This document shows, piece after piece, positions 5,881 to 32,767 of a DNA stretch of 64,000 bases. Origin of the DNA: an uncultured Elusimicrobia bacterium (lineage in GTDB: Bacteria > Elusimicrobiota > Elusimicrobia > 2-01-FULL-59-12). Position 1 is the first letter of the stretch. Every line of letters starts with the position of its first letter. Under the pieces are notes generated by a model that saw nothing but the letters and a program-made list of their open reading frames with translations, had not been told where the DNA came from and ran no database searches. The position numbers were made by a program, and so were the translations under genes. Location: NCBI GenBank assembly GCA_963702895.1, contig OY969767.1, forward strand, positions 640,001 through 704,000, given 5' to 3'.

Positions 5881-6014
5881 CTCGGAATCTTTTTCTGAAA
5901 GCGGGCGCAAGTAATTTCTGCCAGAAACAAAGCTCCCTCTTTGCCTTCTTTCTTTGAAGGCCTTTTAAAGTGTGGTAAGCGTCCTCGGTGTTCGCCCCGA
6001 CGTTTGTCGTTAAG

Positions 6015-6123
6015 CTGAACTCACACTTTTCTTCGTCCACATCGTCTGGACACTGTAATAGTTCGAGGTCGAGTCCCTTACGCTCAGTTTAAACGCAACC
6101 GCCCGTTAAGATTTCGACAAGGC
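6015..6123 (-). ncRNA. Putative bridge/seek RNA of IS1111 copy 1 (target and donor loops)
   Basis: Guides GAAATCT (6109-6115 rc), AACTGAG (6083-6089 rc), TATTAC (6055-6060 rc) and AGAAAAG (6026-6032 rc) sit in internal loops and match target and donor. RNA ends not determined. Confidence 0.75.
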
Positions 6124-7149
6124 GACTCGACCAAATCGATACACTTTCTCTTGGTACTTCCGCTTGTTCTTTAAGCACACCCACATAATCTCTGCCATCT
6201 TTCGCGCCACCGCCACAATCGCGACTGAGGCGGTCTTCCGTGTCTTCAAACGCTGATAGAACGATCGAAAATAGGGAGACACCTGAACAGCCGTCCACGA
6301 TGCCTCAATAAACGCATAGCGCAGGTATCGATTGCAGGACGGGATCAATCCCCCGTGGTACGTTTTACCGCCTGAGCTATACGTGCTACACACCAACCCA
6401 CAGTAAGACGCAAAGCGCGAAGCCGACGGAAATCGCTCGATCTGGTCAATTTCCAGCGACATCAGGGCGCTCAAGATCTTGCCTACCCCAGGAAAAGAAT
6501 CGACAAGCTCTCGTAAGGGGTGTTCGCTTAAGACACGATCAATCCACTCTTCGGTTGCTCGGACCTGAAGCCGAACCTCATCCAACAAGGCCATATGCGA
6601 CTTGAGCAGGTGTTGATGCATCTCGGGAAGAATCAACTCCTTCAGCCACGCCCTCCCATGAGCCCCAAACAGATCGCTGCGCTTGGGCACGTCCACATGC
6701 AGCCGGTCCAGTAAATCATGAATCCGATTCTTGATCAGCGTTTGGCTTTTGACCAACCACAATCGATGTCGCAATAACGACTTCTGCTCTCGTCGGTCAC
6801 GCGCGGGAACGTGAATCATCGGCGTCATCCCTAATCGCAACAACACCGCCTGTGCCGTCGCATCAATCTTGTCCGTCTTGATGTACGAATCCGCGATCAA
6901 CCGAGTTTTGTACGGATTGGCCAACACCGGATTCATCCCGAGATCTTCCAGAATGTCATAGGCAATGCCCCAGCTCCGTCCAGATTCCAATACACTTTGC
7001 ACCGGTTCTCCTGGAGGAATCGCCTCTTTAACTTGTGCAAGACCTTCTCGCCGTGTGGGGACTTGACCTTCCCATACAATCTCGCCAGACTCCCTCATAG
7101 CCACAACCTGACAATACTTCTTGTGATGATCAATGCCGATGGATATCAT
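6106..7149 (-). CDS. IS110-family DEDD recombinase/transposase
   Basis: SIGIDHHK, LESG, KTDKIDA, PGVG, YCGL...YSSGG. Confidence 0.95.
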   Translation of the reverse strand: MISIGIDHHKKYCQVVAMRESGEIVWEGQVPTRREGLAQVKEAIPPGEPVQSVLESGRSWGIAYDILEDLGMNPVLANPYKTRLIADSYIKTDKIDATAQAVLLRLGMTPMIHVPARDRREQKSLLRHRLWLVKSQTLIKNRIHDLLDRLHVDVPKRSDLFGAHGRAWLKELILPEMHQHLLKSHMALLDEVRLQVRATEEWIDRVLSEHPLRELVDSFPGVGKILSALMSLEIDQIERFPSASRFASYCGLVCSTYSSGGKTYHGGLIPSCNRYLRYAFIEASWTAVQVSPYFRSFYQRLKTRKTASVAIVAVARKMAEIMWVCLKNKRKYQEKVYRFGRVALSKS

Positions 7150-7568
7150 GATTTTGGGCCTCCTGGGGTTATTAAGGTGTCTTTACCGACAGCCTTGTTT
7201 ATAACTCTCTTGAGGCCCGCTTTCATATTACGCTCGGTTCTATGGAACACCCTCGCCCGCGGAACGCCGGAGAGGTCGCCAAGACTGTCGGCGACTCGCC
7301 GGATGTCTGGCGAGGCGGGGGTGAGGGCAAGGCTCCGTCGAAAGATGAGGCTGTGCCCTCACCCTTTACCCTCCCACTTACGACCGTGGAACCAGCGCCC
7401 CGACAGGTCGCCAGGGGCGACCGTAGGGGCTGTCCCTCCACCCGCAGGGTGGACGGGACGCGCTATAGGAAATTGCGGAAGCGCGGGTCTCCCACCTTGC
7501 GGCGGGAGAGGGGACAAAAAAGTGCGGCAGGTTCAGACGGCAGGACCTGGTCAATGGAAGATTTCGGG

Positions 7569-7901
7569 CTAGCGGGTAAGGCGTTGGAAGAGAATTTCCT
7601 CGAGGTCCCGTCGGCCATCGAAGATCCCATGGACATAGACCTTCTTTCCCTGGACGCGCAGGAGGATGCGGTAGGGATCGATCACGATCTCACGATAGAC
7701 ATCAAGGCCGATGGCTTTGAGTTCAGGGACCAGCCGGCTGCGATAGGGAACGGAGGTAAGCGTCCCTACGCGCTTCTCGATTTTGCGCCACAGCCTCCCG
7801 GCATTGAGTGGATTGCGCTCCGAGACAAAGGCGACGATATGCTCAAGGTCCTGCCTGGCGGCTTCTGACCAGAGAACGTCGTAGGCCGCGGGCTCATTCA
7901 T
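7569..7901 (-). CDS. RelE/ParE family toxin
   Basis: VLWSEAARQDLEHIV...YREIVIDPYRILLRV...IFDGRRDL. Overlaps the antitoxin stop. Confidence 0.8.
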   Translation of the reverse strand: MNEPAAYDVLWSEAARQDLEHIVAFVSERNPLNAGRLWRKIEKRVGTLTSVPYRSRLVPELKAIGLDVYREIVIDPYRILLRVQGKKVYVHGIFDGRRDLEEILFQRLTR

Positions 7902-8172
7902 GCGACGATAATTTCTTTTCGATGAGCTGTGAAAGTTCTTTGTGGCGGATGACGCGTCCCGAGCGGACATCGGCCTCGCTTTGCGCCGTGAGTTTGAGCA
8001 GGAGGAGGGCTTTGCGGGTGAGTTCGTAGCTCTCCACGTCCTGAACGACCGCCTTCGCCTGTCCGTTCTGTGTGATGATCATGGGCCGGCGGGTGCGATT
8101 GACGGTGGAAAGAATATCCGCCGGCCGAAGCTTTAAGTCGGTCACCGACTTGATGTCACGCTGGAGATCCAT
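7894..8172 (-). CDS. Phd/YefM family antitoxin
   Basis: DIKSVTDLK...RPMIITQNGQAKAVVQDVESYE. Confidence 0.85.
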   Translation of the reverse strand: MDLQRDIKSVTDLKLRPADILSTVNRTRRPMIITQNGQAKAVVQDVESYELTRKALLLLKLTAQSEADVRSGRVIRHKELSQLIEKKLSSHE

Positions 8173-8353
8173 AAGAGCGCTCCTGGGTTGAGAAGGATGA
8201 GTTGGTGCTAAATAGGGTGCCATAAATAGCACCATTATGCAAGCCCCATTTCCACGGAGGATCCCCACCGGCGGGCTGCCGCCGACCGGATGCGCTCTTT
8301 GATTTCGCCCAGCAATTGACCGTACGGAATTGCCATCTATATCCTCCTATCCA

Positions 8354-8381
8354 TTAGATGCGAAAAGGCGGGAAATATTCA
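8354..8381 (-). promoter_or_regulatory. TGAATA-N14-GCATCTAA putative ECF-type promoter
   Basis: Exact motif followed by GGATAGGAGG, upstream of the Phd/RelE pair. Confidence 0.65.
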
Positions 8382-8455
8382 TTCCTCAGACGGAGACGGC
8401 GGAATAGGCGGACGGCGAATCGGCGGGTCGGCGTGTCAGCGACGGGCCGAGGAAT

Positions 8456-8755
8456 TTAGTTTGAGTTAAAGTTGAACAGTTCGCGGACGATGGCGACGCT
8501 GATTTTGGCGGCATTTGAGTTGCGGAGTACGCAGGATACCATCAGGATTCCACTTTCGGTGAAGTAGTACGGGTGGTGCTCTTCCAGCATGAATTCAGGG
8601 GAGGGGAACCGCGCGATATGGCGCTTGACCGTACCTCTCAGTCGCCCCAGCGAAACTCCGTAGAGTTCTGCCACATCTTTGTCGAGCGCAACCCGTTGCC
8701 CGCGGACAAAGTGGCTCCGATGCTTCCGTCGATCGAGTAAGGCGTGCGGGCTCAT
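8456..8755 (-). CDS. Short ORF6N-domain protein
   Basis: VRGQRVALDKDVAELYGV...VKRHIARFP...FTESGILMVSCVLRN. Confidence 0.75.
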   Translation of the reverse strand: MSPHALLDRRKHRSHFVRGQRVALDKDVAELYGVSLGRLRGTVKRHIARFPSPEFMLEEHHPYYFTESGILMVSCVLRNSNAAKISVAIVRELFNFNSN

Positions 8756-8757
8756 GG

Positions 8758-9012
8758 TCAGGCGGCGTGGTGGTGAAGAATTTCGGAGATGAAGGTCTGA
8801 TAGGGAATACCGAAACTCTTCGCTTTTGCTTTGAGGTTGTTGAGATCGCCTTTATTAATCCGGATATTGAGCACGGCGTCTTTTTTCCGCTTTGAAATAT
8901 GCTCGGCAATGGCCCTGGCCATTTCTTCGAACGTCCCCCGGCTGACAGGAATGAATTCTGAAGCGGCCCTCTCAATCTCTCTTTCTTCCTTGGTAAGCTT
9001 CATCCGTTTCAT
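8758..9012 (-). CDS. BrnA/CopG-like (RHH) antitoxin
   Basis: KDAVLNIRINKGDLNNLKAKAKSFGIPYQTFISEILH. ATGA overlap with the toxin. Confidence 0.8.
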   Translation of the reverse strand: MKRMKLTKEEREIERAASEFIPVSRGTFEEMARAIAEHISKRKKDAVLNIRINKGDLNNLKAKAKSFGIPYQTFISEILHHHAA

Positions 9013-9272
9013 AGGAGGAGTCCCTTTCTGCGGTAGATGGCTGTAAACTTGCGGCTTCTGTAGGCTGTCTTCAAAAACCATTCGGCTTCGGTCTCTACAT
9101 ACGGCACGGCCCACAGATAATGCTCATACGCGAACAGCAAAATCCTCTGATGGGGCCGGCTTGGATGTTGGAGCAGATCGACCATAGGAGAGAGGGTCAG
9201 CTCCTCAAAGGACACTCCTCTTTCCCGCTTCAGCCAGTCGCTTTTGTCCGCGCTCCACCGCAGCGGCTTCAT
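9009..9272 (-). CDS. BrnT-like toxin
   Basis: WSADKSDWLKRERGVSFEE...VPYVE...FLKTAYRSRK. Confidence 0.8.
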   Translation of the reverse strand: MKPLRWSADKSDWLKRERGVSFEELTLSPMVDLLQHPSRPHQRILLFAYEHYLWAVPYVETEAEWFLKTAYRSRKFTAIYRRKGLLL

Positions 9273-9356
9273 CGACGGGCCTGATCAGTATACTGTAGGA
9301 CAAGTGTATATACAAGTGGATAGAGCTTGCGATTCATCGCCTTTGCCTCCTATCCC

Positions 9357-9384
9357 TTAGATGCAAAAACCCAATCTTTATTCA
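9357..9384 (-). promoter_or_regulatory. TGAATA-N14-GCATCTAA putative ECF-type promoter
   Basis: Exact motif upstream of the BrnT/BrnA pair. Confidence 0.65.
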
Positions 9385-9664
9385 CACCTTAGACGGAATA
9401 TGAGAAAGAACCGGACATCCCTGGGACAGACCTCGGGCCTGTCCCTGGGTCGTAGGATTTCTCTCAACAGTGGTGAGAGTTTTGGTTTTCCGGCACAGCT
9501 TAGATACGCCGAATGGTGTCAATCGCAGCAGCGAGACGGACGGTGGAGACGGCGGGGGGGCGGAGACGACGAACGGCGGAGACGGCCGGCGGCGGATCTA
9601 CGCTACCGTACGGCGGATCTTCGGGACCATACGGCGGAGACAGCGAGGGGCGGTGACGGGGAGA

Positions 9665-9855
9665 TGGGCGTATCGGAGTATGGGGGTATCGGTGTATCGG
9701 AGTCACAGCCTGAAGGCGTAACGGTGTACCGGAGTATCGGTGTATCGGAGTCACGGCCCTTACTGCGATCCTGCAGTTACTCCGATACTCCGTTACCCCG
9801 TTACCCCGTTACTCCGTTACCCCGTTACTCCGTTACCCCGTTACTCCGTTACTTC
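9665..9855. repeat. Inverted arrays of 8-mer tandem repeats (GTATCGGR facing CCGTTACY)
   Basis: Directly visible octamer runs in opposite orientation. Confidence 0.85.
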
Positions 9856-9979
9856 TTCCAGTCGGGGCGGAGACAGCGGACGGCGGATCACAGGAGCTAT
9901 GCGGCGGAGCTTTGGAACCGTGAGGTGGATCAACGCTAGCGGATGGCGGATCCGTCCTTTGTTAGATCCATGTTTGACG

Positions 9980-10150
9980 TAAAGGAGAATTACGCGATCG
10001 AGGGGTGGATGGGGCCGCGCGATGGTTTGGTGAGCCAGCACCGCATGCCGGAGTTTCATAAAGGCCCTCATGATCGCGATGTCCAGCTGGATGGCCCGCT
10101 CGCTGTTCAGGACGCTCGATCGCATGGCGATGCCCTCTTGCGCGAACACT
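9980..10150 (-). pseudogene. ORF6N C-terminal remnant
   Basis: FAQEGIAMRSSVLNSERAIQLDIAIMRAFMKLRHAVLAHQTIAR matches 3830-4345 but lacks the N-terminus. Confidence 0.75.
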
Positions 10151-10188
10151 CACACCCGACATCCCACCGACATAGTATGCTATAGCCT

Positions 10189-10701
10189 ATGCGAGTTCGA
10201 AGCACGCGCCTGTCTCCTCTGCCTTTCATGCTCCTGGTCAGCGCTCTCCTGTGCGGATGCGCGCATTCTGGGCCGCCCTCACCTGACCCGGCTTATGATA
10301 CGGCGCGGTATATGTCTTTGCAGATTGAGCAAACGAAGAAAGAAAAGACAGTCGTGGTCTGTCTGCAGTCCGATGCGGCCACCAATCGGCGTCTGGAGAC
10401 GTATATGGTTCAGTATCTCAAGAAGGATGGTTTTCAAGCCGTGGGGACCCAAGATGTTTTTACCGTTCGGCCGTCCTATGCCCCGCGCGGGCTCTTAAGT
10501 GAGCTGCGTTCGGCAAAAGTTGCTGGAATTATCGAAGTCAAGTTTTGGGGGAACATCACGCGCGAAGGGGTCCCGGAGCACTTTACACTTGAGCATCGCC
10601 GTTTGAAGGTCAAAAAGAGAGATGTGAACCAACGGTCGTGCGCCACCCTCGCGGAGGCTCTCATGCACCTCATGATCGCGATGCCGGTTGCGAAACTTTA
10701 G
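10189..10701 (+). CDS. Hypothetical lipoprotein
   Basis: Hydrophobic stretch plus lipobox-like LLCGC. Confidence 0.6.
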   Translation: MRVRSTRLSPLPFMLLVSALLCGCAHSGPPSPDPAYDTARYMSLQIEQTKKEKTVVVCLQSDAATNRRLETYMVQYLKKDGFQAVGTQDVFTVRPSYAPRGLLSELRSAKVAGIIEVKFWGNITREGVPEHFTLEHRRLKVKKRDVNQRSCATLAEALMHLMIAMPVAKL

Positions 10702-10704
10702 ATT

Positions 10705-12588
10705 CTAGCCCGAACCCCACCCCAGAGCGCGCCCGACCTGATAGACCGTAAACGAGACCAGCCAAGCGATCGTGTTCATATAGATAAACATCATCATGGG
10801 GATTTTCCAGCCGCCGGTTTCATGGCGGGCAACCGCCAAAGTCGACATGCATTGCATGGCCAGAGCAAAAAAGATCATCAGCGACACCGCTGAGAGCGGC
10901 GTCATGCCAGACCGGAGCGCTTTTTGGAGGGTCGTGCGGTCCTTCTGGTGGTTGTCCACGCGATAAATGGTCTGGAGGGTGCTCACGATCACCTCCCGAG
11001 CGGCCTGGGCGGAAAGAAGTCCAATGCCAATTTTCCAGTCGAAGCCCAGCGGGCGGATGACGGGCTCGATCAGCGTGCCAATCTGCCCGGCGAAGGAATG
11101 CCGGATCCCCTCCGGTCCCGGTTTCTTGGGATAGCTGATGAGAAACCAGAGGACGATATTGACCAGGAGAATCACGGTGCCCGCCTGCTGCAAAAAAACT
11201 TTGGTACGATCCCACATGAGCAGAACGATCACTTTAAAATCCGGTATACGGAAGGGAGGGATCTCAATAAAGAAAGGGGTGGTGGAGGATTTAAGAATCG
11301 AACTCTTCAGGATCCAGGCGGTGCCGAGTGCCGCCCCAAAGCCCACGGCGTAGAGACCCAGGAGAGTCAGCGCGCGCAGACCAAAGAAATTGCCCAAGAG
11401 GGGGATGTCGGGGACAAAGGCACCGATCAGAAGCGCGTAGACGGGCAGGCGCGCGCTGCACGTCATAAAGGGCGCCACAAAGATCGTGGCCAGCCGGTCA
11501 TGGCGGTTTTCAATCGTGCGGGTTGCCATGATGCCAGGGATGGCGCAGGCATAGGAGCTTATCAGCGGCAGAAAAGACTTCCCCTGTAGGCCAATGACAC
11601 TCAGCACTCGGTCCATCACCGCCGCCGCGCGGGGGAGATACCCGAGGTTCTCCAGGATGGCGATAAAGAAAAAAACAATCAAAATCTGCGGCAAAAAAAC
11701 CAAGACCGATCCAACGCCAGCGATCACGCCGTCCGACACAAAATCATTCCAGAATCCCTCCGGCAGCGTGTGACGGACGAAAGTCGACATCGCCATAAAT
11801 CCAGAATCGATGGCATCCATGAACGGCTTGGCCCACGAAAAGATGGCCTGAAAGACGGTCATCACCACGATCCCAAACAGGAGGGACCCCCACACGGGGT
11901 GCATCACGAAGGTGTCGACTTGGTCTGACCAGGGGTGCGGCTGCAGCGGTTTCAGGATCACGCGGTCAGCGATGTCTCGGGCCCGGCGACGGATCGCCAT
12001 CACATCCTTCGTGCTGGGAAGGATAGGAAGCCGTTGAAAGGATGGAGGCTCCGTTTTAGGCCAGCCGTCCATGAGGTCAAGGAGCGCGTCGAAGTTTTCG
12101 TCTTGGGTGGCCGAAAGCGGCACGACAGGAATGCCGAGCTCCTTCGAGAGCTTCGGAATGTCAATCGCCGAGCCCCGCCGCGCCAACTCATCGCGCATGT
12201 TCAAAAGGAGCGCCGTGGAAACCCCCATCTGAATGACTTGCAGAACGAGGTAAAGGCTTTTTTCCAGGCAGGTGCTGTCGACCAAACAGAGGACGCCTTG
12301 CGGTTTGTCGATCTCCTTCAAGGTGCCCAGGATGATTTCGGAGGCGATGCGTTCCTCTTCGGATTTGGGGATCAGGCTATAGGTGCCCGGCAGGTCGATG
12401 AGCTCGACCGACGTCTTCTCCGTTTCAAATTCACCGGTTTTCTTTTCAACGGTGGCCCCCGGGAAATTCCCCACCTTTTGGCGCAAGCCGGTCAACCGGT
12501 TAAAGAGGGTGCTCTTGCCTGAATTGGGATTGCCCGCGATGGCCAGGACCACACGCGAGGGGGTCTTGGCGCAGAGGCTCTTATCCAT
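10705..12588 (-). CDS. feoB: Ferrous iron transporter B
   Basis: GNPNSGKS, VGNFPGATVEKK, DLPGTYSL, gate motifs CAIP and CSARLPVY. Confidence 0.95.
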   Translation of the reverse strand: MDKSLCAKTPSRVVLAIAGNPNSGKSTLFNRLTGLRQKVGNFPGATVEKKTGEFETEKTSVELIDLPGTYSLIPKSEEERIASEIILGTLKEIDKPQGVLCLVDSTCLEKSLYLVLQVIQMGVSTALLLNMRDELARRGSAIDIPKLSKELGIPVVPLSATQDENFDALLDLMDGWPKTEPPSFQRLPILPSTKDVMAIRRRARDIADRVILKPLQPHPWSDQVDTFVMHPVWGSLLFGIVVMTVFQAIFSWAKPFMDAIDSGFMAMSTFVRHTLPEGFWNDFVSDGVIAGVGSVLVFLPQILIVFFFIAILENLGYLPRAAAVMDRVLSVIGLQGKSFLPLISSYACAIPGIMATRTIENRHDRLATIFVAPFMTCSARLPVYALLIGAFVPDIPLLGNFFGLRALTLLGLYAVGFGAALGTAWILKSSILKSSTTPFFIEIPPFRIPDFKVIVLLMWDRTKVFLQQAGTVILLVNIVLWFLISYPKKPGPEGIRHSFAGQIGTLIEPVIRPLGFDWKIGIGLLSAQAAREVIVSTLQTIYRVDNHQKDRTTLQKALRSGMTPLSAVSLMIFFALAMQCMSTLAVARHETGGWKIPMMMFIYMNTIAWLVSFTVYQVGRALGWGSG

Positions 12589-12829
12589 GTGTCCCGTCCT
12601 GGACGCGTACATAAATCAGGTCCCCCTCAGACTTCCGGATACAGAGGCGATATTCCATGAGCTCAATTTCAAGAGGGCCCCAGAACGGCGCCTTCCGGAT
12701 AAATCTGATCGATTCCCCCGGGCAAAAACCCAACTCAATGAGCTTGAGGCTCATGTCCTCCGGCATATCAAGGTGGTCAACAACCGCCTGTTGTCCGGGC
12801 TTCAAAGAGGAAAGGGGGAGTATCGGCAT
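12581..12829 (-). CDS. feoA: Ferrous iron transport protein A
   Basis: LKLIELGFCPGESIRFIRKAPFWGPLE, directly upstream of feoB. Confidence 0.9.
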   Translation of the reverse strand: MPILPLSSLKPGQQAVVDHLDMPEDMSLKLIELGFCPGESIRFIRKAPFWGPLEIELMEYRLCIRKSEGDLIYVRVQDGTHG

Positions 12830-12933
12830 CGCGTCCTGAGCAGGGCTCCATTCTATCCAGATTCTGCGTTGGAGGCGCTGTCTGCCTCCAACGTCCATGC
12901 ATTATACAGCAAAGTTCTTAATTAGCAGACGCC

Positions 12934-12962
12934 TTGACAGGCTGCCAGCTAATCCGTAGAAT
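12934..12962 (+). promoter_or_regulatory. sigma70-type promoter of groESL
   Basis: TTGACA-N17-TAGAAT. Confidence 0.8.
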
Positions 12963-12988
12963 TAGCAATCAGAAATTGGGAGTGCTAA
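12962..12988 (+). promoter_or_regulatory. CIRCE element (HrcA operator)
   Basis: TTAGCAATC-N9-GAGTGCTAA, one mismatch to consensus, upstream of groES. Confidence 0.9.
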
Positions 12989-13040
12989 CCGTAGTCGAAG
13001 TGCTACTACTCCACATTAATCGAACATCAGGAGGTTACGT

Positions 13041-13346
13041 ATGGCAGCAGCAACCGCAGTTCGTTTACGTCCCCTGGGCGATCGCGTCATCGTGAAGCCC
13101 ATTGAGAAGAAGGACGAAGTACGCTCCGGTCTCATCATTCCGGACACCGCGAAAGAAAAGCCCCAAGAAGGCGAAGTGATCGCGGCGGGTAAAGGGAAAA
13201 TCGGAGAAGACGGGAAACTCATCCCCATGGATGTCAAAGCGGGCGATAAAGTCCTCTATGGCAAATATTCGGGGACCGAGATCAAGATGGACAGCCAGGA
13301 ATACCTGATCATGCATCAGGACGATATCCTCGGCATTGTCGAATAG
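13041..13346 (+). CDS. groES: Co-chaperonin GroES
   Basis: [10 protein letters not shown]...[17 protein letters not shown]. Confidence 0.98.
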
Positions 13347-13349
13347 ATC

Positions 13350-13415
<66 letters not shown>

Positions 13416-13425
13416 GGAGAAAGTT

Positions 13426-15063
13426 ATGGCCAAACAACTCAAGTATCAAGACGAAGCCGCGCGCGCCATTAAATCGGGCGTGGATAAGCTGGCGAACGCC
13501 GTAGGCATCACGATGGGCCCGAAAGGCCGCTACGTGGTGCTCGACAAGAAGTTCGGATCCCCCACCATCACCAACGACGGCGTTACCATCGCCAAGGAAA
13601 TCGAGCTGGAAGACCCGTTTGAAAACATGGGGGCTCAGCTGGTGCGAGAAGTGGCCTCGAAGACCAACGACGTCGCCGGCGACGGCACCACCACCGCGAC
13701 CGTCCTGGCGCAAGCCATCGTGAACGAAGGTCTGCGCAACATCACGGCCGGAGCCAACGCCATGCACGTCAAGCGCGGCATTGAAAAAGCCGTTGAAGCT
13801 GTTGTCACCTTCATCAAGAAACTGTCCAAGCCCGTCAAAGACCAGGAGATCGAGCAGATCGCGACGATTTCCGCCAATGACCGGGAAGTGGGCAAGCTCA
13901 TCGCGGACGCGATGAAAGCCGTTGGCAAAGACGGCGTCATCACCGTCGAAGAGGGTAAGTCCGCGAGGACCGAAATTGAGAAGGTCCAGGGCATGAAGTT
14001 TGACCGCGGTTACGTGTCGCCTTACTTTGTGACCGACCCCGAACGAATGGAAACGGTCCTGGAAGACGCGGCCGTCATCATTACCGACAAAAAGGTGAGC
14101 GCGTTAAACGAAATCCTTCCCTTCCTCGAAAAGCTCTTGCAGACCGGCAATAAGCCGTTTCTGCTGGTGGCCGAAGAGGTCGAAGGCGAGGCGCTAGCGA
14201 CCTTGGTGGTTAATAAGCTTCAAGGCCGCCTCAAAGTCGCGGCGGTGAAAGCCCCCGGCTTCGGCGACCGACGCAAAGAGATGCTTCAGGACATCGCGGT
14301 CTTGACCGGCGGCAAGGTCATTTCCGAAGAACTGGGCATCAAGCTCGAGAAGGCCGAAGTCACCATGGTCGGCCACGCCAAGCGCATCATCGTGGACAAA
14401 GAAAACACGACGATTGTGGACGGCGGCGGAGACAAGAAAGAGCTGGAAAAGCGCGTTGCTCAACTCAAAAAGCAGATCGAAGACACCACGTCCGACTACG
14501 ACAAGGAAAAACTCCAGGAACGCCTTGCGAAGTTGGCCGGCGGCGTGGCCCTCATTAAGGCCGGGGCCTCTACCGAGACCGAAATGAAGGCGAAGAAATT
14601 CAAGATTGAAGACGCCATGCACGCGACCCGCGCGGGCGTTGAAGAGGGAATCGTTCCGGGCGGCGGCACCGCGCTTCTGCGCGCGGCCGACGACCTGAAG
14701 TCCTTGAAAGGCGCTGATGTGGATGAGCAGACCGGCATCAACATCATCCGCAAGGCCCTGGAAACCCCCATCCGCCGCATCGCGGAAAACGCGGGCGTTG
14801 AGGGCTCGGTCGTGGTCGACAAAGTCCGGGCCAGCTCCGACCTCAACTTCGGCTTAAATGCCGAGACGGTGGAGTACGGCGACCTCCTCAAGCAGGGTGT
14901 TGTGGACCCGGCGAAGGTGGTCCGCACGGCCCTCCAGAACGCGGCCTCGATCGCAAGCCTGCTTCTGACAGCGGAAGTCCTGATTACGGACATTCCGGAG
15001 AAGAAGGGCGCGGCGGCCGGCGGCGGCATGCCCGGCGGAATGCCCGGCGGAGACATGTATTGA
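13426..15063 (+). CDS. groEL: Chaperonin GroEL
   Basis: [26 protein letters not shown] tail. Confidence 0.99.
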
Positions 15064-15101
15064 AGGCGAACGACTAAAATAGCAAATAGATAATAGTTAA
15101 A

Positions 15102-15137: not shown

Positions 15138-15140
15138 CAT

Positions 15141-25427: not shown

Positions 25428-25924
25428 CATCACGTGAAAAACTTTATGCCATTCGATTTGGAGGAATTCTCTCGATTGCCAGTGCTGTGCTCCTGCTCGA
25501 TCGGCTATCGAAGATGTGGGTGGTGCGCCATTTCGTGCTGGAAGAAAGTCGTCCGATCACCTCGTGGTTTTATCTGACCTATGTTCAAAACACAGGGAGC
25601 GCTTTTGGTTTTTTCCAGGGCAATAACAAAGCCCTTTTGATCTTGGCTTTGCTGATTTTGGTGGCGCTTCTCTACGGGGCGCGTGGTCTTTCGGAGCGAG
25701 GAGGATTTTGGGGCGCGCTCGGGGTGGCGTTGGTCCTGGGGGGCGCGCTCGGTAATATCTACGACCGCATTCAATATGGGCGGGTCATTGATTTCCTCGA
25801 CTTTCGCCTCTGGCCAGTCTTCAATATCGCGGATTCCGCGATCACGGTTGGAACCGCCTGCATCGTAATAGGTCTCTGGTGGGGCAACCGTCATCATGGA
25901 AGCGCAGAGGAGGTCAAGAGATAA
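25424..25924 (+). CDS. lspA: Lipoprotein signal peptidase II (start 25415 or 25424)
   Basis: NTGSAFG, GNIYDR, VIDFLD, WPVFNIADSAI. Confidence 0.95.
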   Translation: MTSREKLYAIRFGGILSIASAVLLLDRLSKMWVVRHFVLEESRPITSWFYLTYVQNTGSAFGFFQGNNKALLILALLILVALLYGARGLSERGGFWGALGVALVLGGALGNIYDRIQYGRVIDFLDFRLWPVFNIADSAITVGTACIVIGLWWGNRHHGSAEEVKR

Positions 25925-26069
25925 ATATGGGAGGTCCGGTTCTTGGTGAGGGGGAAGGCATGAGGAAGACGGCTCTTCGAGCACGAAGAAACGAGGGCTC
26001 AGAACGGAAGTCGTGGGTCTCCGGTCGTTGCTCCTGCGTGTGCGACGCATCTTTCAGGGAAGCCTTCTG

Positions 26070-26843
26070 ATGTTTCCGATCCTCTTTCATCTCGGACCTT
26101 TGACGATCCGGACGTACGGCGCCATGGTCGCGCTCGCTTTCGTGGCGTCGTTGTATTTGGCCAAGGCGTCGGCCCGCTATCGCAAGATTGGGGAGTCCTT
26201 TCTCCTGGACTTGGTTGCGATCTTGGTGGTCAGCGGCCTCTTGGGAGCGCGCCTCTTCTACATCCTGATCAATTTGGCTTACTTTCGTGAGCATCCGGCG
26301 GAGAGCTTCAAGGTTTGGGAAGGAGGGCTTGTTTTTTACGGCGGGTTTCTCTTGGCAACTGTGGTGGGAATCATTTTTACACGCTACCGCGGTTACGCTG
26401 TCTCGGACGTGGCGGATGTGATCGCGCCGGCACTGGCCCTCGGGCAGGGCATTGGGCGGTGGGGATGTTTGTTCGCCGGATGTTGTTACGGCAAGCCAAC
26501 GGTCCTTCCTTGGGGTGTTCGATTCAAGGATCCCTCATCGCTAGCGCCCTTGGGGATCGAACTTCAGCCCGTTCAGATTTATGAATCGGCGGGGTGTCTG
26601 CTCTTGGCGATCTTCCTTTGGCGGATGCTCGTGAGTCGAAAAGAGACGCGTGGCGATATTTTCTGGCTCTATGTTCTCCTGTACGGGGCCCTGCGGTTTC
26701 TCATCGAGCTTTTCCGCGGCGATGAGCGCGGGGCGGCGTTGGGGGGGCTTTCTCCCTCCCAACTGATCGCTCTGGGAGCGGTCCTGGTGGCAGGGAGCAT
26801 CTTTCTGGTTCGAGTGGCGTCCAGAAATGACACGCACGCTTGA
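26070..26843 (+). CDS. lgt: Prolipoprotein diacylglyceryl transferase
   Basis: LGARLFY, GGLVFYGG, GRWGC..GCCYG, PVQIYES. Confidence 0.95.
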   Translation: MFPILFHLGPLTIRTYGAMVALAFVASLYLAKASARYRKIGESFLLDLVAILVVSGLLGARLFYILINLAYFREHPAESFKVWEGGLVFYGGFLLATVVGIIFTRYRGYAVSDVADVIAPALALGQGIGRWGCLFAGCCYGKPTVLPWGVRFKDPSSLAPLGIELQPVQIYESAGCLLLAIFLWRMLVSRKETRGDIFWLYVLLYGALRFLIELFRGDERGAALGGLSPSQLIALGAVLVAGSIFLVRVASRNDTHA

Positions 26844-28041
26844 GCCCGACATCCTCTACGAGGACGCCGCGCTCCTCGTTCTTGATAAGCCCGCGGGGCT
26901 TGTCGTGCACCCGGCCCCGAGTTATAAGGGGCAAACGCTCGTGGACTGGGTGCGCGAGTATCTTGGACCGGGAGCCCCGTCCGATTTTGAGGCCATGGAC
27001 CGCCTGGGACTGGTGCACCGGCTTGACAAGGATACTTCAGGCGTGCTGGTGGTCACCAAAAGCTCGAGTGCGAAGACAGCCGTCGGCAGACAGTTTCATG
27101 ACAGACAAGTGAAAAAACAGTATGTTGCTTTTGTGCAGGGTGTTCCGCCGAAAAGAACAGGAATCATTTCTGCCCCTGTCGGAAGGTCCAAGAAGGTCCC
27201 GACGCGTATGGCGATCACCGGGACCGGCAGACCCTCAGAGACCCGTTTTGAGGTCACCGAAGCCATGAAGGAGGTTGCTCTTGTGAATCTCTATCCCAAA
27301 ACAGGACGTACCCACCAGCTGCGCGTGCATTGCGCCGCGATTGGTCATCCGATCGTGGGGGACAAGACCTACGGCGCAAGCGACAAGTGGTTGCGGGATT
27401 ATGGCGTGGCGAGGCCCCTTCTACACGCTGAAACGATTGAATTCGCGCATCCCACCACGGGCCGCACGGTTTTCTTTCAGGCACCGTGGCCCACGGACAT
27501 GAAGAAAGCGCGTTCTCTCTTTCGCCGCAGCTTTCAAGTGACCGTGTTGATGCTGATGCTTGCCTCCGCCGCGCAGGCTGCCAAGACCAAGCCGGACAGC
27601 TCGCCTGCCCCCAAGCAGAGCGCGAGCAGCGTTTCGTCGGGATCCACCGCTTCATCGGCCACTTCAGCATCGGCGATGAGGTCCCTGAAGCGAGAGATGG
27701 CGTCCTTGCGCGAGCAGTTTAAGACCTTGATCGAGGAGGTCTCTGCTCTTCAGGACCGGGTCAGCTCGGTCCAAGCCAATCTGGATGAGATGGGGGGGGC
27801 GCGTCGCCTCCGAGACCTGGAAAAGGCGATCTCGGATTTAAACGGCAAGGCCGTCGGGACCTTCACGATCTCGGAAGAAACAAAATCCCAAATGCTTGAT
27901 TTGACACGAAAGGTCAAGGCTCAGCAGGAGAGCTTCGAGCAGCTGCGCGATCAGGTCGACCGCTTGCAGCAGGAACTCATTCAATCTCGAGCCCGTGAGG
28001 AAAAAGTGTCAGATACCGTCCCAGCCGAGAGGCCTCGTTGA
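26827..28041 (+). CDS. rluD: RluA/RluD pseudouridine synthase with in-frame C-terminal signal-peptide-like and coiled-coil extension
   Basis: DKPAGLVVHP, VHRLDKDTSG, TGRTHQLRVH, plus about 180 extra aa. Confidence 0.8.
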   Translation: MTRTLEPDILYEDAALLVLDKPAGLVVHPAPSYKGQTLVDWVREYLGPGAPSDFEAMDRLGLVHRLDKDTSGVLVVTKSSSAKTAVGRQFHDRQVKKQYVAFVQGVPPKRTGIISAPVGRSKKVPTRMAITGTGRPSETRFEVTEAMKEVALVNLYPKTGRTHQLRVHCAAIGHPIVGDKTYGASDKWLRDYGVARPLLHAETIEFAHPTTGRTVFFQAPWPTDMKKARSLFRRSFQVTVLMLMLASAAQAAKTKPDSSPAPKQSASSVSSGSTASSATSASAMRSLKREMASLREQFKTLIEEVSALQDRVSSVQANLDEMGGARRLRDLEKAISDLNGKAVGTFTISEETKSQMLDLTRKVKAQQESFEQLRDQVDRLQQELIQSRAREEKVSDTVPAERPR

Positions 28042-28043
28042 GC

Positions 28044-28649
28044 ATGAAGCCCTCCCAACGCAGGAAGCGACAAGGGCTGCTCCTGGTGGTGTCGGCAGGC
28101 TCAGGCGCCGGCAAAAGCACGCTCTGCCGGATGCTTCTCGCCAAACGGAAGAACCTTGTGTTCTCTATTTCGGTCACCACCCGTCTGCCTCGCCCCGGCG
28201 AAAAAGAGGGGCAAGACTACTTCTTCGTATCGGAAGCGGCTTTTCAAGCGATGCGAAAAAGGGGGGAGCTGATCGAATGGGCGAAAGTCCACCACCACCA
28301 CTATTACGGAACCCCGCGTTCCTATGTCGAGCGGATGCGCTCCCAGGGCAAGGACGTACTGCTCGATATCGATGTCCAGGGGGCCCTGCAAGTCAAACGC
28401 AAGTTCCCAGAGGCTGTCCTCATCTTTATCACGACGCCCAGCTTCGCGGAGCTCGAAAAGCGCCTGCGCAGCAGGTCTTCGGAGACCGAAGCCCAGATCC
28501 GGCAGCGCCTGGCGGATGCCCGCCAGGAACTGAAATACCTAGGCTTTTATAACTACAATGTAGTCAATGATCGGTTACCGCTCGCCCTGAAAAGGCTCGA
28601 AGCGATCCTCGATTCTGAAACCCTCAAGATTTCAAAGAAAACAAAGTAA
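28044..28649 (+). CDS. gmk: Guanylate kinase
   Basis: SGAGKST, TTRLPRPGEKEGQDYFFV, YYGT, DIDVQGA. Confidence 0.97.
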   Translation: MKPSQRRKRQGLLLVVSAGSGAGKSTLCRMLLAKRKNLVFSISVTTRLPRPGEKEGQDYFFVSEAAFQAMRKRGELIEWAKVHHHHYYGTPRSYVERMRSQGKDVLLDIDVQGALQVKRKFPEAVLIFITTPSFAELEKRLRSRSSETEAQIRQRLADARQELKYLGFYNYNVVNDRLPLALKRLEAILDSETLKISKKTK

Positions 28650-28660
28650 GGAGACCGTAC

Positions 28661-29050
28661 ATGACAGACTTGTTTCTGGAACCCAAAGTGTTGGATTATT
28701 CTGCGGACCGATATGAATTGATCCTGATGACACTCCGGTGGGCGCGCGCCCTGAAAGCCAAAGGAACGCCGGAGAGCATGCCCGTCTTGATCGAAAAGGC
28801 CTTGAAGGACATTGTGGACCAAAAAGTGACCTTTGAGGAAATTAAGGCCAACAAGGCCCAAGAGGAAACGCCCGTCGAAGAGATACCCGTGGTGGTGTCG
28901 GTCGCCGGCGAAGGTAAAACGGAGCTTCCTCCTGATGAAGAGGAGGGAAAAAAGAGTTCTAAAAAAGAAAAAGAAAAAGGGCTAGAAGTCTCTCTTAAAA
29001 TAATGGTCTATGATCCTTCTGGGCGTAACCGGATCCATCGCAGCTTATAA
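28661..29050 (+). CDS. rpoZ: Probable RNA polymerase omega subunit (3' end uncertain)
   Basis: DRYELI...ARAL...ALKDI pattern between gmk and coaBC. Confidence 0.55.
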   Translation: MTDLFLEPKVLDYSADRYELILMTLRWARALKAKGTPESMPVLIEKALKDIVDQKVTFEEIKANKAQEETPVEEIPVVVSVAGEGKTELPPDEEEGKKSSKKEKEKGLEVSLKIMVYDPSGRNRIHRSL

Positions 29051-29564
29051 GGCGGTCGAACTCCTGAGGCTCTTCCTCAAGGCGGGGCAGGATGTCCAGG
29101 TCGTGATGACCACTCCTGCGACGCGTTTTGTGGGGGCCCTCACGTTTCAGGCGCTTTCGGGCCATGCCGTCCTGACCGATGCCACGGATCCCCAGGCCTA
29201 CCAGATGTCGCACCTGGTGCTCGCTGAGAAGGCCGACGCCATGGTCATTGCGCCCGTGAGCGCCGAGACGCTGTCTCAACTTGCCCGGGGCGGCGCCCAG
29301 GACCTCGTTTGCGCCACGGTCCTTTCCGCGCCCCGCTCCTCTTCCGGGAAGCTCAAGACACCGGTCTTCTTAGCACCCGCCATGCATGAATCGATGTGGC
29401 TGCACCCTGCGACCCAGGAGAACGTCAAAACACTCAAAAGCTACGGGTATCAATTGATCGGACCTGAACAAGGCGCCTTGGGGCGTGCGGGGGATTCCGG
29501 GACAGGCCGTATGTCAGATCCTGCCGTGATCGCCTCTGTCGTTCTTAAGCGTCGTGCGCGTTAG
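29010..29564 (+). CDS. coaC: Phosphopantothenoylcysteine decarboxylase (CoaC half)
   Basis: LGVTGSIAAYKA, APAMHESMW. Confidence 0.9.
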   Translation: MILLGVTGSIAAYKAVELLRLFLKAGQDVQVVMTTPATRFVGALTFQALSGHAVLTDATDPQAYQMSHLVLAEKADAMVIAPVSAETLSQLARGGAQDLVCATVLSAPRSSSGKLKTPVFLAPAMHESMWLHPATQENVKTLKSYGYQLIGPEQGALGRAGDSGTGRMSDPAVIASVVLKRRAR

Positions 29565-30228
29565 CCAGAAGCCCAACACCCTTCGCGACAAGAAAGTCCT
29601 GATCACAGCAGGTCCCACACGCGAATACTGGGACCCTGTCCGCTATCTGTCGAACGGCTCAAGCGGTCAAATGGGCATGGCCCTCGCCCAAGAAGCAGCC
29701 GAACTTGGCGCACGCGTCACGCTCGTCCTGGGACCCACTCCAGGACCCCTTCCTCCCCGAAGAAAGAATGTCCGGGTCGTGAGCATTGAGAGTGCCCTCG
29801 AGTTGGACAAAACAGTGCAGAAACATCTCCAAGGAGTCCATTTCTTTGTGGGTGCTGCTGCGGTATCCGATTACAGGCCGGCCGTGATCGCCAGGCAGAA
29901 AATTAAACAAAAACCGCCCTCTCTGACCCTTCAGCTTTTGCGCAATCCCGATGTCATTGCCAACGTCGCACACCGCGGGCCGAACCGGCCGCCGGTGGTG
30001 GTCGGCTTTGCGCTCGAAACGAAAGATGTCATAAGACATGCCATTCAAAAGCTGAAGCGCAAAGGGCTTGATTGGATCATCGCCAATCGCCATGCCAATC
30101 TCGGCTCCTCCGACGGCTCCGTCACCCTTCTTTCACGCTGGAACGATCGCATTACCATTGGCCGCATGAACAAGGAGCGCCTCGCGAAGCGGATCTGGAA
30201 GGCGCTGATGGAGAGGTCCGCTCCGTGA
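29554..30228 (+). CDS. coaB: Phosphopantothenate-cysteine ligase (CoaB half)
   Basis: ITAGPTRE..DPVRYLSN.SSG.MG, AAAVSDY, VGFALET. Confidence 0.9.
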   Translation: MRVSQKPNTLRDKKVLITAGPTREYWDPVRYLSNGSSGQMGMALAQEAAELGARVTLVLGPTPGPLPPRRKNVRVVSIESALELDKTVQKHLQGVHFFVGAAAVSDYRPAVIARQKIKQKPPSLTLQLLRNPDVIANVAHRGPNRPPVVVGFALETKDVIRHAIQKLKRKGLDWIIANRHANLGSSDGSVTLLSRWNDRITIGRMNKERLAKRIWKALMERSAP

Positions 30229-30245
30229 GAGATCAGGGACGAGGG

Positions 30246-31040
30246 ATGAGGGACGAGGCTCGAGAAGTCATGGAACAAGCGAAGCAGTGGCTTGAGCAGG
30301 AAAAAGTTTGGGACGACTCGCTTTACGCGACATCCAGGACTGACGCGGTGACGCGTCCCCTTGCCCGCGCGTCAAACCAGGAGCGCGCAAGCGCTTTGGC
30401 GGCGCTCTACGAGCGCTTTAAAGACTGCACCCGTTGTCCCCTCGGCACGTCGCGCATCAAGTTCGTCTTCGGGGTGGGCAGCCCCGATGCGGAGGTGCTT
30501 TTTATTGGTGAGGGACCGGGCTATGAGGAAGATCGCCGGGGTGAGCCCTTCGTAGGCAAGGCGGGGCAGCTGCTGGACCGGATGATGGCAGCGATCCATC
30601 TCTCACGCAAGGAGAATGCCTACATCGCCAATATCGTGAAGTGCCACCCCATGGCCAACCCCAAGACTCCCGATGTGCGAGGCAATGACCGGCCGCCGGA
30701 ACCGGAGGAAGTACGGGCATGCTCTCCCATCCTTCTCGCGCAAATCGCGATCCTTCAGCCGAAGGTCATCATGACGCTGGGCTCTCCTTCGACGAAGATG
30801 GTCCTGCACACCCAAGCGGCCATTACAGGACTCAGGGGAAAGCTTGTACCCTTTGATGTGGAGCATTTCTACCCACCGCTTGATCCCCACAGCGTTCAGA
30901 TCGATGAAAAAACACGGGAAGCCCTCTCCAAAACACAGGTGCTCCCCACCTTTCACCCGGCGGCGCTTCTGCGCAACCCCAACCTGAAAAAAGAATCCTG
31001 GGAAGACCTCAAGCTTCTCAAGAAACTCCTTGAGCCGTAG
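30246..31040 (+). CDS. Uracil-DNA glycosylase family 4
   Basis: CTRCPL, IGEGPG..ED..GEPFVGKAG, NIVKC.P, TFHPAALLRN. Confidence 0.92.
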   Translation: MRDEAREVMEQAKQWLEQEKVWDDSLYATSRTDAVTRPLARASNQERASALAALYERFKDCTRCPLGTSRIKFVFGVGSPDAEVLFIGEGPGYEEDRRGEPFVGKAGQLLDRMMAAIHLSRKENAYIANIVKCHPMANPKTPDVRGNDRPPEPEEVRACSPILLAQIAILQPKVIMTLGSPSTKMVLHTQAAITGLRGKLVPFDVEHFYPPLDPHSVQIDEKTREALSKTQVLPTFHPAALLRNPNLKKESWEDLKLLKKLLEP

Positions 31041-31042
31041 AT

Positions 31043-31276
31043 TAACCCGGTATCTGTGCCGTCATCCCCCCCGGCTGTAAGGGGGGGACGCCACACAACA
31101 GGCGTCCGACCGCAGTGTGTCGGATCCATCAAGTCATTTTTGAAAATGATGGACCCCGTCCGCCACACGGCAGGGCGGACGGCCCGCCGGGCGTCTGGAG
31201 GGCCGGCTAGAGCCATGCCGGGGTGACGTCTTAACTTTTCCAGCCAATCGGGGTGACGAACTGGGGATTTTGGTTA
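31043..31276. mobile_element. MITE-like repeat (TA-ACCCGGTATCT...GGGATTTTGGT-TA) containing nested REP hairpins
   Basis: Degenerate TIRs of the same family; shares its right TA with the next element. Confidence 0.5.
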
Positions 31277-31498
31277 ACCGGAAATTTTCGGTTCATTATG
31301 CCTCATCGTCTGAACTCGATGCACTTTTTTGTGCCGTCACCCCGGCGAAAGCCGGGGTCCAGTTCAACGACGATGGACTGGATCCCGGTTTTCACCGGGA
31401 TGACGACTACTGCAGCGTAATATGAAAGCGGGCCTCAAGAGAGTTATAAACAAGGCTGTCGGTAAAGACACCTTAATAACCCCAGGAGGCCCAAAATC

Positions 31499-32542
31499 AT
31501 GATATCCATCGGCATTGATCATCACAAGAAGTATTGTCAGGTTGTGGCTATGAGGGAGTCTGGCGAGATTGTATGGGAAGGTCAAGTCCCCACACGGCGA
31601 GAAGGTCTTGCACAAGTTAAAGAGGCGATTCCTCCAGGAGAACCGGTGCAAAGTGTATTGGAATCTGGACGGAGCTGGGGCATTGCCTATGACATTCTGG
31701 AAGATCTCGGGATGAATCCGGTGTTGGCCAATCCTTATAGATCACGATTGATCGCCGACTCGTTTATCAAAACAGACAAAATCGATGCAACGGCACATGC
31801 CCTGCTGCTACGTTTGGGGGTGACCCCAACAATCCACGTGCCGAGTCGAGATCGGCGGGAACAGAAAGCGCTATTGCGGCACCGACTATGGCTAGTGAAG
31901 GGACAAACGGTGATCAAGAATCGAGTTCATGATTTACTCGACCGACTTCATGTTGACGTTCCCGAACGAAGCGACTTGTTTGGAGCGCATGGCCGGGCGT
32001 GGCTGAAGGCTTTGGAGCTTCCGGAGATGCACCAGCATTTATTGAGATCCCACATGGCATTGCTCGATGAGATTCGCGTCCAAATTCGAGCGACAGAAGA
32101 ATGGATTGATCGGGTTTTAAGGGATCACCCTTTGCGCGAGCTTGTCGATTCATTTCCTGGGGTCGGCAAGATCTTAAGTGCTCTGATGGCCTTGGAAATT
32201 GACACCATTGAACGGTTTCCGACGGCTGCGCGGTTTGCATCGTACTGTGGCGTGGTGTGTAGTACCTACAGTTCAGGGGGTAAGACGTATCACGGAGGAT
32301 TGATCCCGTCTTGTAACCGCTATTTACGCTACGCATTAATCGAGGCCTGTTGGACGGCTGTATCTGTATCACCGTACTTTAAAGCCTTTTATCAGCAACG
32401 AAGAATTCGAAAGCTGTCATCGGTCGCTATTGTGGCAGTGGCCAGAAAGATGGCAGAGATCATGTGGGTATGCCTGAAGAACAAGAGGAAGTATAAGGAA
32501 AAGATGTATCGATTTGGTCGAGTCGCCTTGGCGAAATCTTAA
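31499..32542 (+). CDS. IS110-family DEDD recombinase/transposase
   Basis: Same motifs as copy 1; first 80 aa identical. Confidence 0.95.
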   Translation: MISIGIDHHKKYCQVVAMRESGEIVWEGQVPTRREGLAQVKEAIPPGEPVQSVLESGRSWGIAYDILEDLGMNPVLANPYRSRLIADSFIKTDKIDATAHALLLRLGVTPTIHVPSRDRREQKALLRHRLWLVKGQTVIKNRVHDLLDRLHVDVPERSDLFGAHGRAWLKALELPEMHQHLLRSHMALLDEIRVQIRATEEWIDRVLRDHPLRELVDSFPGVGKILSALMALEIDTIERFPTAARFASYCGVVCSTYSSGGKTYHGGLIPSCNRYLRYALIEACWTAVSVSPYFKAFYQQRRIRKLSSVAIVAVARKMAEIMWVCLKNKRKYKEKMYRFGRVALAKS

Positions 32543-32632
32543 CGGAAGCCGCGTTTAACTGCAGCGTAAGGGACCCGGCCTCGAACCATTACAGTGTCCA
32601 GACGTCGTGGACGAAGAAAAGTGTGAGTACAG
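32525..32632 (+). ncRNA. Putative bridge/seek RNA of IS1111 copy 2
   Basis: Target loop GAAATCT (32533-39) and ACTGCAG (32558-64); donor loop ATTAC (32588-92) and AGAAAAG (32615-21); each pair is separated by a hairpin. RNA ends not determined. Confidence 0.8.
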
Positions 32633-32767
32633 CTTAAGCATCAAGACGAGGCGACGGTAAGAAAAACGCTCAAATAGCTAGTCGCACCACGGCCTACTTC
32701 AAAGGCAAGGAGAGACCTTTTGTCATTAAAGAATTTACTTGCGCCCGCTTTCAGAAAAGATTCCCGG

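Follow-up and report, generated by a model that had tools for sequence, protein, structure and literature searches.

The best described systems close to the one reported here are the RNA-guided insertion sequences (IS) of the IS1111 group. This group is defined by subterminal inverted repeats and by a long non-coding region downstream of the transposase gene (tnp) (PMC11187229), and the available text of PMC11208160 gives the same features. In ISEc11, ISPa11, ISKpn4 and ISPst6, an RNA encoded in the 3' region was shown by experiment to be required and programmable, and natural redirection between relatives was reported for the pairs ISEc11/ISXne4 and ISEc21/ISMch6, whose transposases are approximately 72% identical (PMC11187229). 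Here we analysed a stretch of 64,000 nucleotides (nt) from an uncultured Elusimicrobia bacterium (contig OY969767.1, positions 640,001 to 704,000; hereafter the window), in which an earlier note had described two IS1111 copies with naturally re-programmed target guides. Our results indicate that both are very probably IS1111-group elements of the IS110 family, each encoding a DEDD recombinase and, at the stop codon, a guide RNA of approximately 125 nt (seekRNA or bridge RNA), with target guiding by one internal loop (loop 1) and donor guiding by a second one (loop 2).

Putative target guides and their fit to the insertion sites

The window carries two IS1111-type elements of 1344 base pairs (bp) in opposite orientation (Table 1). 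The genome has five copies, two of type 1 (T1a and T1b, the latter being copy 1 of the window) and three of type 2 (T2a, which is copy 2 of the window, T2b and T2c), with 100% identity inside each type. All five have unique right flanks together with repeat left flanks and thus correspond to five independent insertions. Their orientation with respect to the repeat terminus is uniform, no target duplication is present, and the overlap between flank and element end is limited in each case to the AG core. The transposases contain PF01548 (DEDD_Tnp_IS110; E values of 9e-20 and 7e-19) and PF02371 (Transposase_20, the C-terminal domain of IS116/IS110/IS902; 7e-22 and 3e-22), and with the model NF033542 for "IS110 family RNA-guided transposase" they scored 229 and 234 bits (cutoff 140). 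Residues D7, E55, D93 and D96 were unchanged across an alignment of 23 transposase sequences. From the GL-P----S(T)G motif, the SG was seen in the conserved segment STYSSGGKT (S258, S259, G260 and G261 being invariant or nearly so), and the P position is taken by C in the window proteins and by N in the consensus. The C-terminal domain also showed detectable homology to the IS621 structure 8wt6 (E 2.3e-08). The subterminal inverted repeats are perfect over 11 bp and are located inward of the ends, by 7 nt on the left and by 6-7 nt on the right, the outer extensions being CGTAATA (7 nt) on the left and GAAAAG in type 2 or GAAAAAG in type 1 on the right. Only 83 nt upstream of tnp are non-coding in copy 2 (31416-31498), vs 217 nt downstream (32543-32759).

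The 5' strand of loop 1 is the complement of the right flank, and its 3' strand is a copy of the left flank, followed by a CG that equals the first two bases of the element. The type 2 right guide AACTGCAG matched its own left flanks in 7, 8 and 8 of 8 positions, and the type 1 right guide AAACTGAG in 6 and 6 of 8 (7 with a G-U wobble at T1b), vs 3-4 of 8 when right guides were compared with left flanks of the other type. The segments on which the earlier note had built its proposal are all present: ACTGCAG at 32558-32564, AACTGAG in copy 1 (reverse complement CTCAGTT at 6083-6089), CGTAAGG after the 7-mer in both copies, and GAAATCT within the last codons (32533-32539), where the protein ends with V A L A K S in copy 2 and V A L S K S in copy 1. 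Its reconstructed targets for copy 1 (GGAAT-CT-CGGTT) and copy 2 (GGAAT-CT-GCAGT) were correct, as was the 7/7 match of GAAATCT at 7559, where AGATTTC (7559-7565) is its reverse complement.

Cognate and non-cognate pairs of guide and junction were compared at fixed scaffold positions and with equal offset freedom, and 15 metagenomic relatives and two hold-out genomes were used for the covariation. For the six variable bases of the right guide that precede the constant AG, the cognate mean was 4.85 (20 junctions, minimum 4), vs 2.12 for non-cognate pairs (n=372), among which nine had at least 5/6 matches and none had 6/6. For the eight bases of the left guide, the corresponding means were 6.33 (n=18, minimum 5) and 3.36 (n=286), with nine non-cognate pairs at 6 or above and none at 7. 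The match between guides and flanks exceeds chance. Counted from the far end inward, the positions of the right guide matched in 5, 17, 18, 20, 17, 20, 20 and 20 of 20 junctions; the right guide is read over approximately seven bases including the core and the left guide over approximately six to seven bases from the core. In all 20 junctions, the dinucleotide between the right guide and TAAGG, which we refer to as the handshake, was identical to the first two bases of the element, and it falls into three classes (CG, AT and GT). The two hold-outs, L088 and L089, were kept out of model building, and their matches were scored partly by eye. At the left junction of L088 the 9-base string of guide plus handshake was exact (9/9), with 6/8 for the left guide, and L089 showed an 8/8 match at the expected distance.

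That the flank-like segments are passive copies of the junctions, made for example by imprecise excision and non-functional as guides, is an explanation to which we give almost no weight. The segments occupy fixed positions in a helix-bounded loop with compensatory base-pair changes, the other strand of loop 1 is the complement and not a copy of the opposite flank, and the same segment is found in 3/3 type 2 copies, which are inserted at different sites. The 3' strand of loop 1 does resemble the left junction over 12-13 contiguous bases (ACTGCAG+CGTAA), as a copied junction might; however, in most relatives only the two end bases continue the flank match.

Putative guide-RNA scaffold and donor loop

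Relatives were collected from metagenomes (224 confirmed, 80 kept), and the same scaffold was found at or after the stop codon in 19 of the 80 loci, at 42-71% protein identity. The other 61 loci lack the scaffold pattern and were excluded from all counts, being more distant or cut (L018 and L025 are cut, and L020 has a divergent scaffold). RNAalifold analysis of 20 aligned sequences gave three helices with 23 pairs, 11 of which show compensatory changes; one pair of the first helix (P1), for instance, occurs as UA in seven, as CG in six and as GC in four sequences. P1, with the inner end CCUUG/UAAGG, surrounds loop 1, an internal loop of large size that contains a small hairpin, and the helices P2 and P3 surround loop 2. 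Minimum free energy folding of single sequences was no better than that of shuffled ones (z-scores of 0.08 and -0.95). Thus, single-sequence energies are uninformative and the scaffold structure rests on covariation. When the 3' ends of the homologues were folded and aligned, a check proposed in the earlier note, the scaffold showed compensatory pairs, and the guides covaried with the flanks both in the relatives and in the two hold-outs. The outer stem that the note had drawn is conserved as far as the pairing of CCTTG with TAAGG is concerned, but the CG before TAAGG lies outside the stem of the family consensus and instead follows the two bases with which the left end starts.

In this genome, the matches of the covariance model are exactly the five IS copies, and no orphan guide-RNA genes, like ssr9 of ISPpu9, were detected by the model and BLAST. 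The model also matched 2 of 150 other sampled genomes of the phylum. In 6 of 21 scaffolds, the reading frame of the transposase continues unchanged through the left guide; such in-frame read-through was considered as a rule for the family and rejected on this count. A YTAR sequence after the left guide is conserved, whether it contains the stop codon or not. In six relatives (L009, L010, L017, L019, L021 and L022) we observed an extra 90-250 nt between the conserved C-terminus of the transposase and P1. In one metagenomic relative (L066:1793-1939) loop 1 is present and loop 2 is absent, the 5' arm of P2 running almost straight into ..TCAGAAAAG and the flank; this locus may have lost the donor loop by deletion.

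Loop 2 covaries with the ends of the element. Its 5' strand tracks the variants of the left end (AGT/ACT, AAT/ATT, AAC/GTT, AGG/CCT and GGT/ACC), and the longest common substring with left-end bases 2-6 was 4.1 for cognate vs 2.8 for non-cognate comparisons. Its 3' strand reads AGAAAAG, like the right end, and AGAGAAG in L088 and L089, whose right ends also read AGAGAAG. We also noticed that the dinucleotide after this strand (alignment columns 116-117; window 32622-32623) is paired with the class of the left-end start, namely TG with CG, AT with AT and GA with GT.

From the covariation of the scaffold, and of the guides with flanks and ends, we infer that the RNA is produced, that the recombinase binds it and that it targets insertion. 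A search of public sequencing runs gave no RNA run for this sequence, a result to which we attach no weight; two runs contained approximately 10% of the sampled words. P1 would enclose the target loop, whose 5' strand, (G/T)CGAAAUC plus U, would pair with the right-flank strand and the core, and whose 3' strand (type 2, AACUGCAG; type 1, AAACUGAG) would pair with the left-flank complement, with the AG core and with the CG that starts the element. P2 and P3 would enclose the donor loop, one strand of which matches bases 2-6 of the left end and the other the terminus AGAAAAG of the right end. If it behaves like ISEc11 and IS621, the element would be excised as a circle with a promoter at its junction. 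Abutting the two ends gives a promoter candidate composed of TTGCGC, a spacer of 17 nt in type 2 or 18 nt in type 1, and TAATAT, and similar candidates were found in 14 of 17 elements. Within the complex of recombinase and RNA, loop 2 would next pair with the junction of the circle and loop 1 would pair with the target, and strand exchange at the CT/AG core would insert the circle where the flanks pair with loop 1. The left guide, common to both types, would anchor them on the terminus of several repeat families that resemble MITEs (miniature transposable elements with inverted repeats). The four-base difference in the right guide would direct type 2 to one abundant MITE family, at its ..AACTGCAG^ATTCC.. 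end (^ marks the junction), and type 1 to ..AAC(A/C)GAG^ATTCC.. sites.

Table 1. Positions of elements, guides, guide-RNA parts and target sites in the window (nt; other coordinates as indicated).
Feature	Position	Strand	Details
IS copy 1 (type 1), T1b	5889..7232	-	1344 bp; identical second copy at genome 416569-417912
IS copy 2 (type 2), T2a	31416..32759	+	1344 bp; two further identical copies in the genome
Type 1 transposase coding sequence	6106..7149	-	347 amino acids; PF01548 and PF02371; NF033542
Type 2 transposase coding sequence	31499..32542	+	347 amino acids; 88% identity to type 1
Left subterminal inverted repeat, copy 2, TGAAAGCGGGC	31423..31433	+	partner GCCCGCTTTCA at 32743-32753
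Subterminal inverted repeat pair, copy 1	7215-7225 and 5896-5906
Type 1 guide-RNA scaffold	6010..6136	-	covariance-model match, 116 bits; overlaps last codons of the coding sequence
Type 2 guide-RNA scaffold	32512..32637	+	covariance-model match, 108 bits; P1, loop 1, P2 and P3, loop 2
Type 1 left target guide, TCGAAATC	6110..6117	-	loop 1 5' strand; complement of right flank
Type 1 right target guide, AAACTGAG	6083-6090	-	followed by handshake dinucleotide CG at 6081-6082
Type 2 left target guide, GCGAAATC	32531..32538	+	in codons A-K-S, followed by stop codon
Type 2 right target guide, AACTGCAG	32557-32564	+	followed by handshake dinucleotide CG at 32565-32566
Loop 2 5' strand, ATTAC	32588..32592	+	complement of left-end bases 2-6 (putative donor guide)
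Loop 2 3' strand, AAGAAAAG	32614..32621	+	copy of last right-end bases (putative donor guide)
Target half at right end of copy 1, GTTAACTCGGAAT	5876..5888	+	repeat terminus
Target half at left end of copy 1	7233..7240	+	CT core and CGGTTC; interior of MITE-like repeat
Uninterrupted repeat terminus, AGATTTC	7559..7565	+	7/7 complement of GAAATCT
MITE-like repeat (~155 bp) interrupted by copy 2, left (main) part	31275..31415	+	starts TAACCGGAAAT, ends ..CTACTGCAG
Terminal 12 bp of the host repeat of copy 2, ATTCCCGGTTAA	32760..32771	+	cut off from the rest by copy 2

Insertion sites and divergence of the two types

In element orientation, the junctions of the type 2 copies read ..CTACTGCAG^CGTAAT...GAAAAG^ATTCCCGGTTAA at T2a, ..CAACTGCAG^...^ATTCCCGGTTAG at T2b and ..CCAACTGCAG^...^TTTTCGGGTTAA at T2c, and those of the type 1 copies read ..TCAACAGAG^...^ATTCCCGGTTAG at T1a and ..GAACCGAG^...^ATTCCGAGTTAA at T1b. 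The host of copy 2 is a MITE-like repeat of 153-155 bp with the terminal inverted repeat TARCCGG(A/G)AATCT and a 3-bp TAR duplication, full copies of which read TA(A/G)CCGGAAATCTTCGGTTC...GACAACTGCAGATTCCCGG(T/C)TA(A/G). This repeat contains two internal GC hairpins (see, for example, the genome copy at C1:2487356-2487508). Several other repeat families end in AGATT(C/T)CCGG(C/T)TA and thus have a terminus of 11-13 bp in common, with different interiors. The left guide that both types share (reverse complement GATTTCG(C/A)) fits best the terminus variant at 7559-7565.

The type 2 insertion point lies between ..CTGCAG and ATTCC.., 12 bp from the right terminus of the repeat, and the genome contains 14 uninterrupted ACTGCAG^ATTCC sites in addition to the three occupied ones. 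T2c is inserted in another repeat family than the other type 2 copies, yet at the same 8-mer; an unoccupied relative of its site, AACCGCAG^TTTTC, has one mismatch to the guide. The type 1 copies occupy two repeat families, at AACAGAG and AACCGAG. As a separate observation, three tandem right halves of the MITE, approximately 105 bp apart and each with an intact type 2 site, are present at C1:1380381-1380682 of the genome.

Several results weigh against guidance of the two elements by this RNA. The type 1 right guide is imperfect at both of its sites, at the same position (a possible G-U wobble at T1b and a true mismatch at T1a), and no perfect type 1 site (AACTGAG^ATTCC) was found in the genome. 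The left guide matched the five local right flanks in only 5, 5, 6, 5 and 7 of 8 positions, which is below most relatives. Two of the three type 2 sites are in one MITE family and are thus not independent sequence contexts. In the relative L007, scored by eye, the left flank fitted at only 4/8 (with 7/8 for the right flank and left guide); because the first pattern did not cover its TGA stop, this locus is absent from the counts of guide/flank and handshake matches. In loop 2, the dinucleotide that follows AGAAAAG (TG, AT or GA), tried as a handshake of the IS621 type, did not fit the first two bases of the right flank and was rejected in this role. A search of the whole window with Rfam 15 at the gathering score gave no matches. 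Finally, AACGGAG^ATTCC and AACAGAG^ATTTC, two nearly matching sites outside the repeats, are empty, meaning that base pairing may not be the sole determinant of site choice.

The empty sites bear directly on a different explanation, namely that sites are chosen mainly by recognition of the repeat by the protein or through DNA structure (its terminal inverted repeat or a GC-rich hairpin), with the guide matches being secondary or incidental. Such a hairpin ends 13-15 nt before the junction in three of the five left flanks (T1a, T2a, where it spans 31371-31401, and T2b), and for ISPpu10 a stem-loop at the target is given as a second determinant in the available text of the bioRxiv preprint 10.64898/2026.03.19.712850. 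However, T2c has no adjacent hairpin in its left flank and is located in another repeat family, but retains the exact 8-mer, and the guide/flank covariation extends over unrelated targets in a way that goes beyond any fixed protein-DNA code. A hairpin could supplement pairing but could not substitute for it, and we consider site choice mainly by structure unlikely. Within RNA guidance, a hairpin requirement on the target side might explain why the two near-matching non-repeat sites remained empty.

The two types differ in an uneven manner. The first 319 nt, comprising the left end and 237 nt of coding sequence, are identical (31416-31734 and 6914-7232), and beyond them identity drops abruptly to approximately 75% (56-90% per 50-column window). 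Such an abrupt switch indicates a mosaic produced by recombination or gene conversion, which would be older than the copying within each type. The identical 319-nt blocks form, in the window, inverted repeats that face each other across 24 kb, and inversion between them could occur. In the guide region, the types differ in the outermost base of the left guide, the inner hairpin loop and four of the eight bases of the right guide, and further in two bases of the P1 3' arm and a few loop bases. The donor ends and donor guides are the same, save for an additional A in the type 1 right end. With the left guide fitting the common terminus and the right guide fitting the repeat-specific interior, the former appears to be anchored and the latter to read the interior. 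The idea of the earlier note, that one guide is fixed and the other has diverged to follow different repeat interiors, clearly fits type 2, with its 14 free and three occupied perfect sites, and fits type 1 more weakly, for which there is no perfect site.

How the pair arose is a separate question. The two types may have arrived separately, each already set for its targets, and later exchanged the 5' 319 nt by homologous recombination or gene conversion, a scenario that we find plausible at somewhat below an even chance. Between the types, divergence past the 319 nt (56-90% identity per 50 columns, and 88% in the protein) is far greater than within them (100% identity), and the abrupt step in identity is by itself a signature of recombination. 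Metagenomic proteins with 86, 82, 78 and 74% identity (P0002-P0005) were found outside this genome, which shows that the lineage extends beyond it. None of 60 related genomes contained a close relative of the type 2 protein (E <= 1e-60), which also speaks for separate arrival; a scan of genome contigs for relatives returned one distant locus with 30% identity. On the other hand, the guides of both types fit the repeat termini of this genome and the left guide is shared, for which diversification in a repeat-carrying host lineage is the simplest explanation.

Such diversification can be cast, tentatively and with more doubt than confidence, as a cycle of anchoring and exploring. The half-guide in the last codons would stay fixed on the terminus of a MITE superfamily, only the free half-guide would mutate, the sub-lineages would partition the repeat families, and co-resident sub-lineages would swap modules by recombination, of which the identical 319-nt 5' block beside approximately 75% identity would be the trace. 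If true, half-site reprogramming together with module exchange would be a natural route for the radiation of IS1111 elements within a genome.

Comparison with known systems

The mechanism, the 3' location of the RNA in IS1111 elements, its programmability and natural retargeting have all been published already (Siddiquee 2024, PMC11187229; Durrant 2024, PMC11208160, as far as its available text goes), and RNA guidance of IS110/IS1111 recombinases, which the earlier note had taken as established, is among these published facts; the elements of the window carry the DEDD domains, inverted repeats and two-loop scaffold that go with it. No new mechanism is revealed here. What our data support well is an unnamed sub-family of IS1111 that occurs in Elusimicrobiota and in environmental metagenomes and includes a natural pair of elements retargeted in one half-site. 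The alignment and the covariance model define an IS1111 guide-RNA sub-family that is missing from Rfam.

In the available text on IS621 (PMC11208160 and PMC11208158), the bridge RNA likewise has two internal loops, for target and donor, and a CT/AG core, and the 3' strand of its target loop is likewise composed of guide, core and a 2-nt handshake that matches the donor (PMC11208158). In contrast to IS621 as described there, the RNA is located here at the 3' end of the element and not at the 5' end, so the orientation of the element relative to the guide is opposite. The long subterminal inverted repeats are a further difference, the 5' strand of loop 2 would pair only over 4-5 bases and not with the core, and the dinucleotide after the donor guide breaks the IS621 handshake rule.

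Other elements resemble ours in their choice of targets. According to the available part of PMC5896051, IS1111 of Coxiella burnetii lands at a fixed position in the miniature repeat QMITE2 and splits off the repeat end, and IS4321 and IS5075 are described, in what is accessible on them, as IS1111-group elements that target the terminal repeats of the Tn21 family. Compared with these accounts, the repeat family and the host phylum are different here, and two guide variants partition related termini. The "sequence-structure dual match" of ISPpu10, in the available text of 10.64898/2026.03.19.712850, involves a target beside a GC-rich stem-loop in a repeated intergenic element, similarly to three of our five sites; ISPpu10 belongs, however, to the IS110 group, and one of our sites has no hairpin.

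The closest likeness is to the IS1111 seekRNA elements ISEc11, ISXne4, ISPa11, ISKpn4 and ISPst6 (PMC11187229), with which the two elements share a DEDD transposase of 330-350 amino acids, subterminal inverted repeats, a long downstream non-coding region, a short, structured RNA close to the stop codon that has a segment for either target strand, the lack of target duplication and a circle-junction promoter (here a candidate predicted from sequence). At the level of the named elements the transposase is unrelated, its closest proteins being unnamed metagenomic ones. A keyword search of the open-access literature found no paper on two IS1111 variants of one genome with one half-guide in common and the other half-guide different. 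Unlike ISEc11 and ISXne4, the two variants described here are co-resident, are closer to each other (88% amino acid identity), and share one half-guide and an identical 319-nt 5' module. With the same donor ends, four bases of difference in the other half-guide, and five independent insertions and 14 empty sites within one genome, this natural pair can show how many guide changes are sufficient to move an RNA-guided recombinase from one site to another, which positions tolerate mismatches and whether neighbouring hairpins play a role.

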